This document shows positions 477 to 8,178 of a stretch of DNA of 8,178 bases, piece by piece. The notes beneath the pieces were generated by a model, which had not been told where the DNA came from, did not search any database, and saw only the letters and a list, made by a program, of their open reading frames with translations. A program made the position numbers and the translations under genes. The DNA comes from a virus (taxonomy: Duplodnaviria > Heunggongvirae > Uroviricota > Caudoviricetes), in IMG/VR virus record IMGVR_UViG_2778261085_000010; one strand, 5' to 3'. Positions within the stretch are counted from its first letter, which is position 1; each line of letters opens with the position of its first letter.

Positions 477-770
477 GTGGCAAAAGTTTTTACACAAGAA
501 GAGCGGGAAAAAATTAAAGGGCAGGTTCTTGAACTCGTACGCCAGAGTGGGCGCGAGACGTTACGACAACTGGAAGCTAAAACTGGGGCAACAAGATATC
601 TGATGAGCGTTCTGGCCAGAGAGCTGGTTGCCAGTGGCGATGTATACAACTCTGGTTACGGGTTATTCCCGTCTGAACAGGCGCGTAAGGACTGGCAAAA
701 TGCCCGTAAAAAGCTCTCAAGGGCAAAGCTGAAGAAACCATCTGCGGTTGATCCGGACCTTATCTGGTAA
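477..770 (+). CDS. Small basic protein, possibly Ren-like or winged-helix DNA-binding (97 aa)
   Basis: GTG start at 477 with a G-rich RBS (aggggggc) a few nt upstream. Size and position immediately after the replication gene resemble lambda ren. It has a basic C-terminal tail (ARKKLSRAKLKKP) and a TGAT-containing putative helix-turn-helix segment. No strong family recognition. Confidence 0.4.
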   Translation: MAKVFTQEEREKIKGQVLELVRQSGRETLRQLEAKTGATRYLMSVLARELVASGDVYNSGYGLFPSEQARKDWQNARKKLSRAKLKKPSAVDPDLIW

Positions 771-1045
771 TTACCTGATGGAGAAATACGTCGTTACGAC
801 AGGCGTCATAATATGATTTGTACTGAGTGTCGTAAAAGCGAAGTTATGCAGCGCATATTGTCGTTTTATCAGGGGGATGTTCGGCATTTATTGAAGTGAC
901 GAGATTAAAGTGCATTAGTTCAGATGCAAATTGACATTTTGTGGCACAGGGTAGAGCTAGCGTGGTTGTCCGCTTTGTGCCAACAGCGGACATTATAGAT
1001 GGTATATGTAAAAAGTGAACATGCGTAGATTGTATGATTTAGCCG

Positions 1046-1855
1046 TCACTTAATTATTGGATAACTCACACAAGTATGACCGTTGCTTATCGCATACATT
1101 TGGTTTCCCTTAAGATTTACAAATGGAAATGTCGTATACTCATAATTTATAGAGGTCATGTTAAATGTAAGGAATTTATCTTCAAGTTCTAATTTTGTAG
1201 AGTGGGCAGGGTATGTTCCTTCATTTTTCATTGTGATAATAAAACCGATAGGGAAAAAATGTAAAGCACAAATAAATGCCACATGTCCTTCGTTCATAAA
1301 TGCTACACTTTGAGCGGATATGTGCATTCTGTGTGGGTAAAACCAGTAGTAAATATCATGAGTTTCCTCAAAACTTGAATTTTTACCCAAAACATAATCC
1401 TTTAAAGGTGTATAGAAGGGGCTATCTACGGGTTCTTTTTTACAATCTTCAACTGAAGTTGCTGATAGCACGTGCCCAATCATAGCCTTAGTGAAAGATA
1501 TGCTATCAAAAGGTATTCTAATGAATGGATATACATTCATACCATTCATATATCGACTTAACTGTTCTTTAAAGGACTTTGTTACATTTTCAATTGCAAC
1601 ATCGAGCCCACCTAATACCTTATTGTTACAGTGGCTGCAAATGGTTCTGAAATAAGAGCCATTTTTAGCATTTAATGGTTTAACTGGTTCCTGAATACCA
1701 AAAAATTCGCTAACTGTTTTCTGCAAAACAGGGCCTAAGGTTATGGCGCACTTTGGAGGAACATGATCTTTTGTGAGCAAGCCATATTTCCCACAAATAT
1801 TGCAATAACCTTCAGTAATGCCATTGTGCTTCCATCGTTCACTAATTTTCGTCAT
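1046..1855 (-). CDS. HNH nuclease-domain protein with uncharacterised ~190-aa C-terminal domain (269 aa); AT-rich cargo gene
   Basis: Uninterrupted 810-nt ORF on the minus strand. Start ATG at 1853-1855 is preceded on the mRNA by GAGGGA plus a 7-nt spacer. The N-terminus carries a zinc-finger HNH pattern (CNICGKYGLLTKDHVPPKC ... NGSYFRTICSHCNNK). GC content is visibly lower than the flanking prophage genes and the gene is opposite in orientation to them. Confidence 0.7.
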   Translation of the reverse strand: MTKISERWKHNGITEGYCNICGKYGLLTKDHVPPKCAITLGPVLQKTVSEFFGIQEPVKPLNAKNGSYFRTICSHCNNKVLGGLDVAIENVTKSFKEQLSRYMNGMNVYPFIRIPFDSISFTKAMIGHVLSATSVEDCKKEPVDSPFYTPLKDYVLGKNSSFEETHDIYYWFYPHRMHISAQSVAFMNEGHVAFICALHFFPIGFIITMKNEGTYPAHSTKLELEDKFLTFNMTSINYEYTTFPFVNLKGNQMYAISNGHTCVSYPIIK

Positions 1856-4138: not shown

Positions 4139-4516
4139 ATGACTGAACGCATAGAATTTGTTTTGCCTTACCCGCCGACGGTGAACACCTACTGGCGACG
4201 CCGTGGCTGCACATATTTTATATCGGAAGCCGGTAAGCGTTATCGCCGCGATGTGGCGCTTATCGTTCGCCAGCAGAGGCTGAAATTAAATCTGTCCGGA
4301 AGGCTGGCGATAACGGTTATCGCAGAGCCGCCGGATAAGCGCCGTCGTGATCTGGACAATATCCTGAAAGCGCCACTGGATGCGCTGACACATGCGGGGC
4401 TGCTTATCGACGACGAGCAGTTTGATGAAATTAATATTGTGCGCGGTCAGCCTGTTCTTGGTGGGCGACTGGGTGTGAAGATTTTCATAATCAGAGGTGG
4501 TAACGATGGCGCGTGA
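4139..4516 (+). CDS. rusA: RusA-family Holliday junction resolvase (125 aa)
   Basis: ATG at 4139 abuts the upstream TGA (ATGAATGA junction). Conserved RusA catalytic region PDKRRRDLDN...KAPLDALTHAGLLIDDEQ compares well with E. coli RusA (PDRRRRDLDN...KAAFDALTKAGFWLDDAQ) as recalled. Confidence 0.75.
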   Translation: MTERIEFVLPYPPTVNTYWRRRGCTYFISEAGKRYRRDVALIVRQQRLKLNLSGRLAITVIAEPPDKRRRDLDNILKAPLDALTHAGLLIDDEQFDEINIVRGQPVLGGRLGVKIFIIRGGNDGA

Positions 4517-4871
4517 CATTCCATTTGTTCTTGAACGATGGGGGGCATGGGCTGCGAGTGATAGCTCAGGAGTTGATTATTCCCCAATTGCTGCTGGATT
4601 TAAGGGGCTTTTACCGTGTACCAGTAAAATACGACAGGCATGCAGTGATGCGGATGGATTAATCATAGATGGCTGCCTAGCTCTTCTTAAGAAGAAAAAA
4701 CCATATGAGCACTCTCTGATTGTGGCTCATTACTTGTATGGTATATCGAAGCGGAAGATCGCAAAGGCACGTAAAAAAGATGAGAAACTAATACGTATTG
4801 AGATTAAGATGGCTGAAGGGTTTGTTGAAGGCTGTCTCTCAATGAGGGGTGTTAAACTTGAAATGGATTAG
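4506..4871 (+). CDS. Late-gene antitermination protein Q (121 aa)
   Basis: ATG 4506 with GAGGTGG RBS, overlapping the rusA 3' end by 11 nt. Motif LERWGAWAA...IAAGFKGLLP...LEMD is characteristic of the Q antiterminator family of lambdoid prophages (quuD/quuQ type). The listed start at 4497 is a GTG 9 nt earlier. Confidence 0.8.
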   Translation: MARDIPFVLERWGAWAASDSSGVDYSPIAAGFKGLLPCTSKIRQACSDADGLIIDGCLALLKKKKPYEHSLIVAHYLYGISKRKIAKARKKDEKLIRIEIKMAEGFVEGCLSMRGVKLEMD

Positions 4872-4876
4872 TGGAG

Positions 4877-4894
4877 CCCCGGTTTAAGCCGGGG
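4877..4894 (+). other. GC-rich hairpin immediately 3' of Q (weak terminator or Q-region RNA structure)
   Basis: CCCCGG-tttaag-CCGGGG, a 6-bp all-GC stem 6 nt after the Q stop, followed by ATGTTTCTG (only a short U-tract). Confidence 0.3.
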
Positions 4895-5352
4895 ATGTTT
4901 CTGAGCGAAGAGATGTTTGTTTGTGAAGCTATTATATAGTTAATTAGGAAAACATGTGTTTTCGATAGCTGTACAGGTGACTTTTTTCATCAATTTCAAC
5001 ATGGCGTGAGAAGCAGATTTTTTGCGTACCAGATGTTTTATTTGGTTTTAGATTTCAGATTATTTCGAACAACGACAAAATGCCATTGTTCGTAGAGTTC
5101 ACAGATAGAGCCACACCAGCATGAGCTTCAGGAGACAAGGTTACCCGTCGCAGTAGGGGATTTTTAAAGTGCTTATAACGGTGTTGATGTGGACTTTCAG
5201 TGTTCTGGCAGTAACAACAGTAGAAGTGAGCATTGTGGTTCATATCCAGTAAGTGTGATGCACACTCAAAATATATCTAATGGGATTAATGTTTTCTTAA
5301 TGTAAACCATGTAAAATTTCAGGGAGAGTTCAATACTTGTTCATAATTTATT

Positions 5353-6369
5353 ATGTGTAGTATCAATAAACTTAGTGTTATTGTCCCGTTATATAATGCG
5401 GGCGATTATTTCTGCACCTGTATGGAATCTTTAATCACGCAAACGTGGACTGATCTGGAAATTATCATTATTAATGATGGTTCGACAGATAATTCTGTTG
5501 AGATAGCAAAGTATTACGCGGAAAACTATCCGCACGTTCGTTTGCTGCATCAGGCTAATGCTGGCGCATCGGTAGCGCGTAATCGTGGGATCGAGGCGGC
5601 GACGGGCAAATATGTCGCTTTTGTCGATGCTGATGATGAGGTCTATCCCACCATGTACGAAACGCTGATGACCATGGTGTTAGAGGATGACCTCGACGTG
5701 GCGCAGTGCAACGCTGACTGGTGTTTTCGTGAAACGGGAGAAACCTGGCAATCCATCCCCACCGATCGCCTTCGCTCAACCGGCGTATTAACTGGCCCGG
5801 ACTGGCTGCGGATGGGACTTTCTTCCCGCCGTTGGACTCACGTTGTCTGGATGGGCGTTTATCGTCGCGACGCTATTGTAAAGAATAATATTAAATTTAT
5901 TGCCGGATTACATCATCAGGATATTGTCTGGACAACTGAGTTTATGTTTAACGCGCAGCGTGCGCGATATACCGAGCAATCGTTATATAAATATTATCTG
6001 CATAATACGTCAGTGAGTCGGTTGAACAGACAAGGGAATAAAAACCTTAATTATCAACGTCACTATATTAAGATCACCCGCCTGCTGGAGAAATTAAATC
6101 GAAATTATGCCGACAAAATTACGATTTATCCTGAATTTCATCAGCAAATAACTTACGAAGCATTGCGTGTTTGCCATGCGGTACGCAAAGAGCCGGATAT
6201 TCTTACCCGCCAACGGATGATTGCCGAGATATTTGCTTCCGGTATGTATAAGCGTATGATTACGAATGTGCGCAGTATAAAGGTTGGTTATCAGGCGTTA
6301 CTGTGGTCTTTTCGCTTATGGAAATGGCGAAACAAAACACAGGTTATGCGTCCAATTGATTGGATATGA
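5353..6369 (+). CDS. Family 2 glycosyltransferase (GT2), soluble type (338 aa)
   Basis: N-terminal GT-A fold signatures: [53 protein letters not shown] (DxD). No C-terminal transmembrane pair of the GtrB kind is apparent. No obvious RBS upstream of ATG 5353. Confidence 0.8.
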
Positions 6370-6989
6370 TTTATATTTCTCATTTATCAAGATAATCATC
6401 CAGATGATCTTATTTGGTATTTTGCGCGACTTTTCAAATATCATAGGTTACAAAAAAGTTGTTGAATTGCTGTCTATCAACATGCGTTTGCTAACGAGAA
6501 AAGAATTTGTTGGTGTATTTTTTGAGAGGATAAAATACAACCGCTTTATGCCGATATGTTTCATAACAAAAGCGAAATCCGTATTAGCAGCAATCAAGAC
6601 GAACACACCAACGGGCTTCTCATGAGTAAGGATGGTCATATTCATACTGAGCTTAATGTTGACGGCTTTTGGCTTGTATTATTCGTAGTGTACAGCTCAA
6701 GTTGTCCAAGAGGAGCGAGAGTACCATGTCTGGCTTCTGTATGGAGTGTAACAATTAGTTAAGGGTAAGATAACTCTGTCAACCATTTCATATGGGAACT
6801 ATATAAATGCTTACGCGGTCCGCAAAAACAATTGTAACATGTTAAGAGTTATTACTTCGACTTCTTTCATACCCCCACCTCCGGGCTGTTTTTTGTGCCA
6901 AAGGGGAGGACGTTGAATGTGCTGGTTGGTGTGAATATGATGGTTTATTGCTAATTGCTTACTTCCCTGATGCGTGTGAAGTATTGGGT

Positions 6990-7514
6990 ATGACATCGAA
7001 ACAGATAGCGGAAGCCACCGGAAAGAAAAACATGGCTTCGCACTGGTTTGGTACCAGCCAGTGGCAGTTACCGAATGAGGCCGATTACAGTAAACTGCAG
7101 GTGCTGTTTGCACGTGTGGCGGCAGAAAAACATCAGCGCGGTGAACTGGAGCAGCCACACCATCAGCTGGTCAGCACATACAGCGAACTGAACCGGCAAT
7201 ATGTCAGCCTGCTGGAGGAATACAAATCACTGCGGCGTTATTTTTCCGTATCAGCTGCCGTTCCTTATACGGATGTCTGGACGCACAAGCCTGTGCAGTA
7301 TTATCCGGGTAAGCATCCCTGTGAAAAAACGGCGGATATGTTGCGTCAGATAATTACTGCCAGCAGCCGTCCTGGCGATTTGGTCGCAGATTTTTTTATG
7401 GGGTCGGGGTCGACAATAAAAGCGGCACTGTCGCTGGGACGCATGGCGATTGGCGTGGAACTGGAAGAGGAGCGTTTTAATCAGACGGTCAGAGAAATAA
7501 CGAAAGATTTTTAA
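6990..7514 (+). CDS. DNA methyltransferase C-terminal fragment (beta-class N6A/N4C type, AdoMet-binding half) fused to an unrelated HTH/coiled-coil N-terminus; probably truncated and inactive
   Basis: C-terminal ~85 aa (DVWTHKPVQYYPGKHPCEKTADMLRQIITASSRPGDLVADFFMGSGSTIKAALSLGRMAIGVE) matches the HPxxKP...FxGSGT motif-I region of beta-class methyltransferases such as YhdJ/CcrM. No DPPY catalytic motif is present anywhere in the frame, which is open only back to 6846. The listed start at 6948 is a TTG; ATG 6990 (MTSKQIAEATGKK...) is more plausible. Confidence 0.55.
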   Translation: MTSKQIAEATGKKNMASHWFGTSQWQLPNEADYSKLQVLFARVAAEKHQRGELEQPHHQLVSTYSELNRQYVSLLEEYKSLRRYFSVSAAVPYTDVWTHKPVQYYPGKHPCEKTADMLRQIITASSRPGDLVADFFMGSGSTIKAALSLGRMAIGVELEEERFNQTVREITKDF

Positions 7515-7616: not shown

Positions 7617-8064
7617 TCTTCCAGGTATGCAGGGTTTTATCTTTTATGTTAGCTGGTGGTTGCTGGTAACCTGAAATGGTTATGCTTGCTTACATAGTAA
7701 TCCGCGTAATTACGTAATGCAGCATGCCATACAGGTATCGTATAATGGCGATTACATAAGCCTACCAGGTTGATGATGCAGGTTAGATTCCTGCTACCTG
7801 CTACCTGCCCATGGTTGTTTATGCCAAGACTATGTCAGGCACTGACATTATATTATGTGGGGTGTTTTTTATGGTTACTTGCGCACCCTGTTCTGTAATG
7901 AGTGATATTCGTTGCGGTTCCAGTGCCATTTTTTTTACAACATCGGAATGGTGCATTATTAGCAAATATTTTTTCTGCTTCAGGCATTATTCCGATGTTG
8001 TAAACATCGACAAAACAAAACCCAGATTAGTCACATACTAAGTCAAGCCCGGACATCATTCCTT

Positions 8065-8089: not shown

Positions 8090-8104
8090 ATTGTGCACAG
8101 AAAA

Positions 8105-8123
8105 CCCCCAGCTAGGCTGGGGG
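8105..8123 (-). terminator. Candidate terminator for a minus-strand gene entering from beyond the window end
   Basis: CCCCCAGC-tag-GCTGGGGG 8-bp stem; on the minus strand it is followed by TTTTCTGTG (short U-tract). Confidence 0.4.
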
Positions 8124-8178
8124 TTCCGGAAAGCTTTCAGCTTTGAGCCAGTTATTAAAACCCCTTTTGATTTGTTAA

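Follow-up and report, generated by a model that had tools for sequence, protein, structure and literature searches.

Temperate phages are known to convert the lipopolysaccharide (LPS) of their hosts at the O-antigen, which gtrABC, oac, and similar modules of phages such as SfV, SfX, P22, and Sf6 modify. Surface-affecting cargo also occurs in lambdoid prophages next to the antiterminator gene Q: the porin gene nmpC of DLP12 lies there under its own promoter, and the lc porin gene of phage PA-2 is reportedly carried between Q and the lysis genes and expressed in the lysogen. Here, we analyze an 8,178-nucleotide stretch of DNA from a virus of the Caudoviricetes (IMG/VR record IMGVR_UViG_2778261085_000010), referred to in its entirety as the window, in which the gene beside Q is, as judged from alignments and protein family models, a prophage-borne second copy of waaH (yibD), the gene for a cytoplasmic glycosyltransferase (GT) of family 2 (GT2). 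WaaH attaches glucuronic acid (GlcUA), taken from UDP-GlcUA, to heptose III in the LPS inner core, and this addition is induced via PhoB/R and accompanied by loss of the heptose II phosphate (PMC6358824). The enzyme family is already known, and most of the phage-borne alleles are already named WaaH by NCBI; what is new is a phage-borne, IS1-captured, selected copy of waaH placed upstream of the likely late promoter. Our preferred interpretation, held with moderate confidence, is that this captured copy is kept by selection and would be expressed in the lysogen, independently of Q, to add GlcUA to heptose III.

The locus resembles several described systems in part. Like nmpC, the waaH copy occupies the slot between a QuuD-type Q upstream and a module of promoter, the motif GTTAAGAGT, and terminator downstream, and it is likewise predicted to affect the cell surface and to be served by its own promoter; unlike nmpC and lc, which encode outer-membrane porins on the opposite strand, it encodes a cytoplasmic enzyme on the strand of Q and was delivered by IS1 into an earlier cargo gene, one for an NYN-domain protein. 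Like the gtrABC and oac modules, it is a temperate-phage gene predicted to alter the LPS of the lysogen, but its predicted target is heptose III within the inner core, its product is soluble, and it closely copies a housekeeping-type gene of the host and does not belong to a phage-specific family. The Shiga toxin (stx) phage phiP27 and the LT-IIb phage are of the same phage type and share its neighborhood of Q, methylase, tRNAs, and holins; in phiP27, however, the stx genes lie downstream of the module, methylase, and tRNAs, inside the late transcript, whereas the waaH copy lies upstream of the module, and in the LT-IIb phage record the toxin genes follow the endolysin. WabB, the heptose III N-acetylglucosamine transferase of R3-core E. 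coli O157, differs by description from the waaH copy in being plasmid-encoded and in transferring another sugar.

A copy of waaH beside Q

The gene is an open reading frame (ORF) of 338 amino acids at 5353-6369 on the plus strand, identified from the ORF list, Pfam, NCBIfam, and alignment to E. coli. It shares with chromosomal WaaH of E. coli K-12 the GT2 domain (PF00535, Glycos_transf_2, residues 8-136, E 3.9e-39 in a Pfam search), the DXD motif (DADD, residues 92-95), an upstream block described below, and 312 of 330 residues (95%). The NCBIfam equivalog model for WaaH/YibD (NF007482, PRK10073) matches residues 3-331 with 613.9 bits against a cut-off of 423, and all other glycosyltransferase families in the NCBIfam listing fall far under their own cut-offs, so that WaaH alone reaches one. 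A homology search for the GT2 subfamily had been proposed by an earlier, sequence-only reading of this DNA, and WaaH/YibD is its outcome. Of 5,426 complete E. coli genomes searched by megablast, 5,421 match window positions 5268-6338 at 90-95% identity; among the matches listed, the annotation is always waaH, UDP-glucuronate:LPS(HepIII) glycosyltransferase, and in the E. coli genome inspected in detail the match falls in the chromosomal tdh-waaH-yibQ locus adjoining the rfa genes.

The copy differs from chromosomal waaH in its prophage location, its C-terminus, its first 250 bp (82% identity), and the loss of distal upstream DNA. Residues 1-330 of the phage-borne protein correspond to WaaH, and the final eight residues and the stop derive from IS1: native WaaH has 344 amino acids, and its last 14 codons are replaced here by eight codons (VMRPIDWI*) from an IS1 terminal repeat, the homology ending 46 bp short of the native stop. 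Nor is the native tdh-waaH-yibQ setting present, the gene sitting instead between Q and a methylase gene remnant in a prophage, and the window shares only the waaH fragment with every species-representative waaH locus. The sequence-only reading had described a complete 338-amino acid GT2 gene about 480 bp after the Q stop. The intact ORF, the shared strand, and the distance (481 bp between the Q stop at 4871 and the GT start at 5353) all stand; "complete" does not apply to the native gene, 14 codons of which have been replaced.

That reading had also remarked that the C-terminal transmembrane pair of GtrB-type enzymes is missing, and the 338-amino acid protein indeed has no transmembrane segment, its highest 19-residue Kyte-Doolittle mean being 0.84. 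Since WaaH acts on a nucleotide sugar at the cytoplasmic side of the membrane, no such pair is expected. The analogy that had been drawn with GtrB and O-antigen modification, on the other hand, does not survive the match to a cytoplasmic inner-core enzyme; of the features of a GtrB-type system, neither a hydrophobic segment nor an intact gtrA- or gtrC-like ORF is found within 4872-6948.

NCBI annotation starts the same gene at an ATT one codon upstream, giving 339 amino acids, which is why an exact look-up of the 338-amino acid protein returned no match; NCBI does contain the window protein when it is read from the ATT, described as a glycosyltransferase from E. coli. Of three phage-borne alleles looked up there, two are named UDP-glucuronate:LPS(HepIII) glycosyltransferase from Escherichia coli and one only "glycosyltransferase"; together they occur on 39 contigs. 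We found no solved structure of WaaH.

Capture between IS1 elements

The captured chromosomal piece is 1,074 bp long (5268-6341) and consists of 85 bp of native waaH upstream DNA (5268-5352, plus strand, from alignment to Escherichia waaH loci) and waaH without its last 14 codons; all Escherichia waaH loci are homologous to the window from 5268 up to 6338-6342. To its left lies a decayed IS1-family element (4930-5267, minus strand) that retains both termini, has two internal deletions, and encodes no intact transposase, the 341 bp left of the waaH fragment giving a 77% match to IS1-family transposase DNA. To its right lies a second IS1-family copy (6342-6449, plus strand), truncated after about 108 bp, whose inner terminus, GGTTATGCGTCCAATT..., begins in register at the 3' breakpoint of the waaH fragment. 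We scored the IS1 termini by ungapped matches over 50 bases, with the register set in each case by a waaH or NYN breakpoint: the terminus at 4930 has 27 matches (P 8.5e-5), the one ending at 5267 has 28 (P 2.8e-6), and the one starting at 6342 has 35, and other registers within 8 bases of the breakpoints reach at most 18 for the first two termini and at most 19 for the third. The right copy also scores about five standard deviations above shuffled sequences in local alignment. For the left inner end, local alignment to one IS1 copy is not significant, while the in-register test at the independently set breakpoint is. The precomputed annotation of related loci places a 30-amino acid HTH_Tnp_IS1 fragment, flagged as weak, within the left IS1 remnant.

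Outside the IS1 remnants lie the pieces of an older gene on the minus strand, which encoded an NYN-domain protein and is preserved in the related prophage locus L083. Its 3' end remains at 4885-4926 and its middle part, with in-frame stops and frameshifts, at 6450-6755. By blastn, window positions 4511-4926 align with L083 5706-6121 at 78% identity and the middle part matches L083 at 72%; by tblastn, NYN residues 276-287 are placed at 4922-4887 and residues 147-209 are covered, with stop codons in frame, in 6450-6755. Between the two parts, 123 bp of the NYN target are absent. Passenger DNA is thus flanked by in-register IS1 termini, as in a composite transposon; we found no intact transposase, no fourth (outer right) IS1 terminus, and no target-site duplication or other flanking direct repeat. 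On these junctions, the structure is that of an IS1-waaH-IS1 unit inserted in an older antisense NYN cargo gene after Q and since decayed.

The history read from the sequence begins with two IS1-family elements that bracketed the 1,074-bp chromosomal piece. The resulting unit then entered the NYN-domain cargo gene of a DLP12/phiP27-like lambdoid prophage of E. coli, after which the IS1 copies and the NYN gene decayed, and the waaH ORF was kept intact and spread onto several prophage backbones by recombination.

Occurrence in E. coli prophages

The assembly collection lists the exact Q protein (121 amino acids) in 128 of its blocks. A look-up with this protein returned ten loci, each with Q, the IS1 fragment, and the GT gene, and also with the methylase remnant if the contig extends that far. 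These ten sister loci are 92-98% identical to the window and have several different early-region backbones. With six more loci retrieved via one GT allele, 16 E. coli draft-contig loci were obtained, in every one of which Q is followed by a 339-amino acid GT call; the two contigs richest in downstream DNA continue into genes for holins, endolysin, terminase, portal, and protease, and one of them reaches a capsid gene as well. The placement of the GT2 gene as cargo beside Q in a lambdoid prophage, suggested from the window alone, is therefore confirmed by all 16 loci and by the lysis and structural genes on those two contigs. The same junctions and the same C-terminal tail recur in all ten sister loci translated, and, since all 11 copies including that of the window share the IS1-derived tail, they descend from one capture.

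The Q/waaH module is in none of the 5,426 complete E. coli genomes, and no record with a phage-borne waaH module was found among deposited phage genomes. A 28-mer spanning the junction is absent from viral and metagenome contigs, and a protein-pattern scan of viral contigs found no relative. Close matches among phage records were set aside as bacterial contigs filed as phage or as unannotated fragments of a few kb. Two 174-kb records with waaH (MG065686.1, L103 in our set, deposited as "UNVERIFIED Campylobacter phage A18a", and MG065691.1) were likewise rejected as phage-borne copies: MG065686.1 contains 6.5 kb with 97% identity to the waaH region of the E. coli chromosome (kbl to envC), a similarity that points to contamination or chimeric assembly. 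Literature searches on waaH and prophages and on prophage LPS-core glycosyltransferases and superinfection exclusion turned up no account of a phage-borne waaH.

Selection on the captured gene

The GT ORF is intact in all 11 copies translated. Among these, the copy at sister locus L090 was compared with that of the window. The two loci are almost the same from Q up to where the GT gene begins and diverge from there on; of 988 sites in the gene, 35 differ, and 23 of these differences are synonymous and 12 nonsynonymous (dS 0.114, dN 0.015, dN/dS 0.13; binomial P against neutrality 2.5e-8). Between the same two loci, divergence amounts to 11% in the right IS1 remnant, 12% in the NYN remnant, and 14% in the module with the probable late promoter (pR'). 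Measured against E. coli waaH, the phage-borne gene has a dN/dS of 0.115. That dS equals the divergence of the dead flanking DNA while nonsynonymous changes are so few is our chief reason to think that the gene has been useful inside prophages; the flanks serve as an internal neutral clock, by which the captured gene has been under selection since its capture. The sequence-only reading had set its proposal against a gene that clusters with chromosomal LPS-core or O-antigen transferases and was acquired by a recent rearrangement with no phage linkage. Half of this describes the locus: the gene clusters with a chromosomal LPS-core transferase and came by an IS1 rearrangement. The other half does not, the event being neither recent nor unlinked to phage, with copies that have diverged under purifying selection in prophages.

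A passive hitchhiker, by which we mean useless cargo of an IS1 composite transposon that is intact because little time has passed or because chromosomal waaH has repaired it, would fit the decay all around the gene: besides the NYN pseudogene there are a 5'-truncated methylase gene, a decayed hairpin in the terminator (tR') next to the probable pR', a nonsense codon in a DUF977 gene, and an IS200 end. It would also fit a host species that nearly always has its own waaH, the rarity of the module among complete genomes, and the 13 of the 35 differences at which one lineage matches the E. coli allele. We nonetheless judge this explanation unlikely, though not negligible, since 21 of the 35 differences are lineage-specific and do not match E. 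coli, the ORF is intact in every translated copy across several backbones, and constraint on the gene coexists with adjoining non-functional DNA that has diverged as far as the synonymous sites of the gene.

The divergence from chromosomal waaH is uneven. Among species representatives, the captured fragment is closest to E. coli (92.1% nucleotide identity), followed by E. ruysiae (89.7%) and E. whittamii (89.6%), but positions 5268-5520 are only about 82% identical to all Escherichia, as against 96.2% (5521-6180) and 91% (6181-6342) identity to E. coli in the rest. The ends of the fragment may come from an unsampled donor or may have changed faster. At similar dS, comparisons of E. coli with its sister species give a dN of 0.005-0.012, about one fifth of the 0.026 found on the phage branch. 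This excess could be taken to mean that the acceptor or donor specificity changed after capture, or that the protein took on a regulatory role, and that its function is no longer that of WaaH. Substitutions are indeed concentrated in codons 1-56, among them D19Y and R21C near the conserved SVIxPxYN segment at the N-terminal end of the GT2 domain, the C-terminal tail is replaced, and native WaaH of O157 (R3 core) affects biofilm without detectable GlcUA addition (bioRxiv 10.1101/536201). A new function is still very unlikely in our estimation: the protein remains 95% identical to WaaH, the DXD motif and the whole GT-A domain are conserved, dN/dS is far under 1 throughout, and the divergent 5' end, with about 11 synonymous to 9 nonsynonymous differences, resembles a different donor allele rather than the product of positive selection.

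Position relative to the late promoter and expected expression

Q is a 124-amino acid ORF of the QuuD/phiP27 type at 4497-4871 on the plus strand (PF06530, Phage_antitermQ, E 1.7e-48), which the gene calls of sister loci begin at the ATG at 4506 (121 amino acids). Its product is 83% identical to Q of L083, 53% to Q of phiP27, and 43% to that of L003; the Q of L002, at 23%, is unrelated. It is followed at 4877-4894 (plus strand) by a GC-rich hairpin with a weak T tract, a possible terminator of both the Q transcript and the antisense NYN gene, which gives a terminator-like match and a fold of -15.6 kcal/mol (z -2.1); the hairpin region is kept in L083, in which 12 bp separate the convergent Q and NYN genes.

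A probable pR'/tR' module lies at about 6805-6900 on the plus strand, downstream of the GT gene. In general the module combines a promoter-like pair, made up of a weak -35 and TATNAT, with the motif GTTAAGAGT and an intrinsic terminator; the window has TTACGC-18-TAACAT as its pair, and its terminator hairpin is decayed. The module is conserved in L083, L003, phiP27, and DLP12, and in DLP12 of K-12 it lies between nmpC and essD, 110 bp upstream of this holin gene. L002, whose Q is of another type, shares only the terminator and the DNA beyond it, and what precedes its terminator is a different segment lying immediately after Q; a change of this segment with Q type is the pattern expected of a Q-specific late promoter. 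Related prophages share the order Q, variable gene, conserved module, 65-amino acid ORF, DNA methylase, tRNAs, and holins, where the variable gene encodes an NYN-domain protein (minus strand), an OmpC-like porin (minus strand), or, in phiP27, a GIY-YIG protein (plus strand). No sigma70-like site was found on the plus strand from the Q stop to 6913. By position and conservation, the GT gene thus probably occupies a cargo slot between Q and pR', outside the late transcript, which makes Q-dependent expression unlikely and the earlier placement of the gene in a Q-dependent late-gene position probably wrong. Cargo in the variable slot of DLP12/phiP27-type prophages, upstream of the likely late promoter, should accordingly not be assumed to be under the control of Q. 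The idea of an stx-like late-operon gene, transcribed from pR' under Q antitermination on induction and remodeling a surface glycan during lysis, draws on the shared orientation of the gene with Q and the lysis genes between which it lies, and on possible early-operon read-through across Q and the weak T tract of the 4877-4894 hairpin, but has little probability when the module that directly precedes the DLP12 lysis genes and varies with Q type is downstream of the GT gene, relatives hold opposite-strand genes in the same slot, incompatible with a late-operon position, and no promoter-like site lies between the Q stop and the GT gene.

The 85 bp carried along with waaH contain the upstream block that is most conserved across Escherichia, Citrobacter, and Salmonella (ATTAATGTTTTCTTAATG...TGTAAAAT), with the consensus CTTAATnGTTTCTTAATAcAAAg.CTGTAaAAc and the window version ATTAATGTTTTCTTAATGTAAACCATGTAAAAT. 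We propose that the phage copy would be transcribed from the core of the native waaH promoter contained in this DNA, which is responsive to phosphate starvation in E. coli; with the likely late promoter/terminator module downstream of the gene, expression would then take place in the lysogen, independently of Q. Phosphate starvation raises waaH expression 46- to 80-fold in O157, where an electrophoretic mobility shift assay shows binding of PhoB (bioRxiv 10.1101/536201), and phosphate-responsive expression of the phage copy is plausible. A reading of CTTAATnGTTTCTTAATA as a Pho box was dropped because only two of seven positions match the consensus half-site CTGTCAT, and we call it simply the conserved upstream block.

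Proposed function

The activity, expression, and benefit that we ascribe to the phage copy are inferred. The phage enzyme would keep WaaH activity, and the benefit would be extra or differently regulated glucuronylation of the heptose region, which might change outer-membrane charge, biofilm behavior, or the adsorption of core-binding phages. Mutation of waaH has been linked to lost phage adsorption in Shigella (PMC12671091) and to less biofilm under low phosphate in O157 (bioRxiv 10.1101/536201), so that roles in phage exclusion and in host fitness are both reasonable as predictions.

Several observations weigh against this interpretation. The pR' is assigned by position and conservation only. 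Part of a second conserved block, more distal to the gene than the one retained, is missing at the IS1 junction, and PhoB control of waaH is itself disputed, the binding seen by mobility shift being set against chromatin immunoprecipitation sequencing in K-12, in which waaH expression was PhoB-dependent yet no PhoB binding was found (PMC10294691). The first approximately 56 codons hold seven substitutions and the 14 replaced C-terminal residues are conserved among enterobacterial WaaH proteins, so activity or specificity could differ. With waaH matched in nearly all complete genomes, the phage copy may be redundant, and the 13 sites that match E. coli in one lineage make possible some gene conversion by chromosomal waaH, which would inflate the apparent constraint.

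In some of these prophages, a gene for an LPS core heptose(II)-phosphate phosphatase of the Ais/PmrG family (NF011945, 203 bits against a cut-off of 142) follows the endolysin gene on the minus strand (L098 14768-15349, L089 15670-16254, L002 15312-15887). It occurs both with and without the waaH copy and is suggestive because GlcUA addition is reportedly coupled to loss of the heptose II phosphate. One could extend our interpretation to a remodeling of the lysogen's inner core, in which phage WaaH adds GlcUA to heptose III, joined in some members by the Ais/PmrG phosphatase, and the altered charge of the heptose region blocks core-binding phages or aids the host in phosphate starvation. We regard this extension as unlikely; if true, no earlier phage conversion system would have had the inner core and not the O-antigen as its target.

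A WaaH retained by prophages would take conversion beyond the O-antigen to the conserved inner core, with which many phages and host defenses make contact. The locus also offers a clean, datable case of a host housekeeping-type gene turned into phage cargo, in which the IS1 ends can still be read and the earlier cargo is visibly destroyed.

Other features of the window

Downstream of the pR'/tR' module, a DNA methyltransferase gene is reduced to its 3' part (6950-7514, plus strand; PF01555, profile positions 124-219 only). Relative to related prophages, about 900 bp are deleted here, taking the 65-amino acid ORF and the first approximately 160 methylase codons, and window positions 6950-7500 align with L083 8176-8726, inside a 1047-bp gene. 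A sigma70-like site (TTGAAT-17-TATGAT, 6913-6941, plus strand) lies on the junction of this deletion, downstream of the decayed terminator, and may drive the tRNA and late region without Q. The phage tRNA-Gly at 7731-7802 (plus strand; ARAGORN, Rfam tRNA 41 bits) belongs to the conserved methylase-tRNA-lysis region; ARAGORN gives it the anticodon ACC, which is unusual in bacteria, and the annotation of relatives says just tRNA-Gly.

The window is cut at its right end within an IS200 left end (8103-8178, plus strand; Rfam STnc490/art200, 80 bits), and no alignment of a sister locus to the window continues past 8092. We considered the STnc490 match as a late-promoter RNA and rejected this, as it is the IS200 antisense RNA. 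Near the left end, a DUF977 gene (477-899, plus strand) has an in-frame stop at codon 98; the copy in L002, otherwise 97.7% identical, is intact at 140 amino acids. Between this gene and hokD, an island of 33-37% GC contains a 269-amino acid ORF with CxxC pairs (1046-1855, minus strand) that has no Pfam, NCBIfam, or PADLOC match. Sister loci hold an AbiH gene and a 463-amino acid gene (L090) or an FRG-domain gene (L094) in the same slot, which may be a hot spot for defense genes. The window also contains a hok/sok toxin-antitoxin locus (2311-2485 and 2423-2635, both on the plus strand), with an Rfam sok match of 111 bits and a Hok-family ORF.

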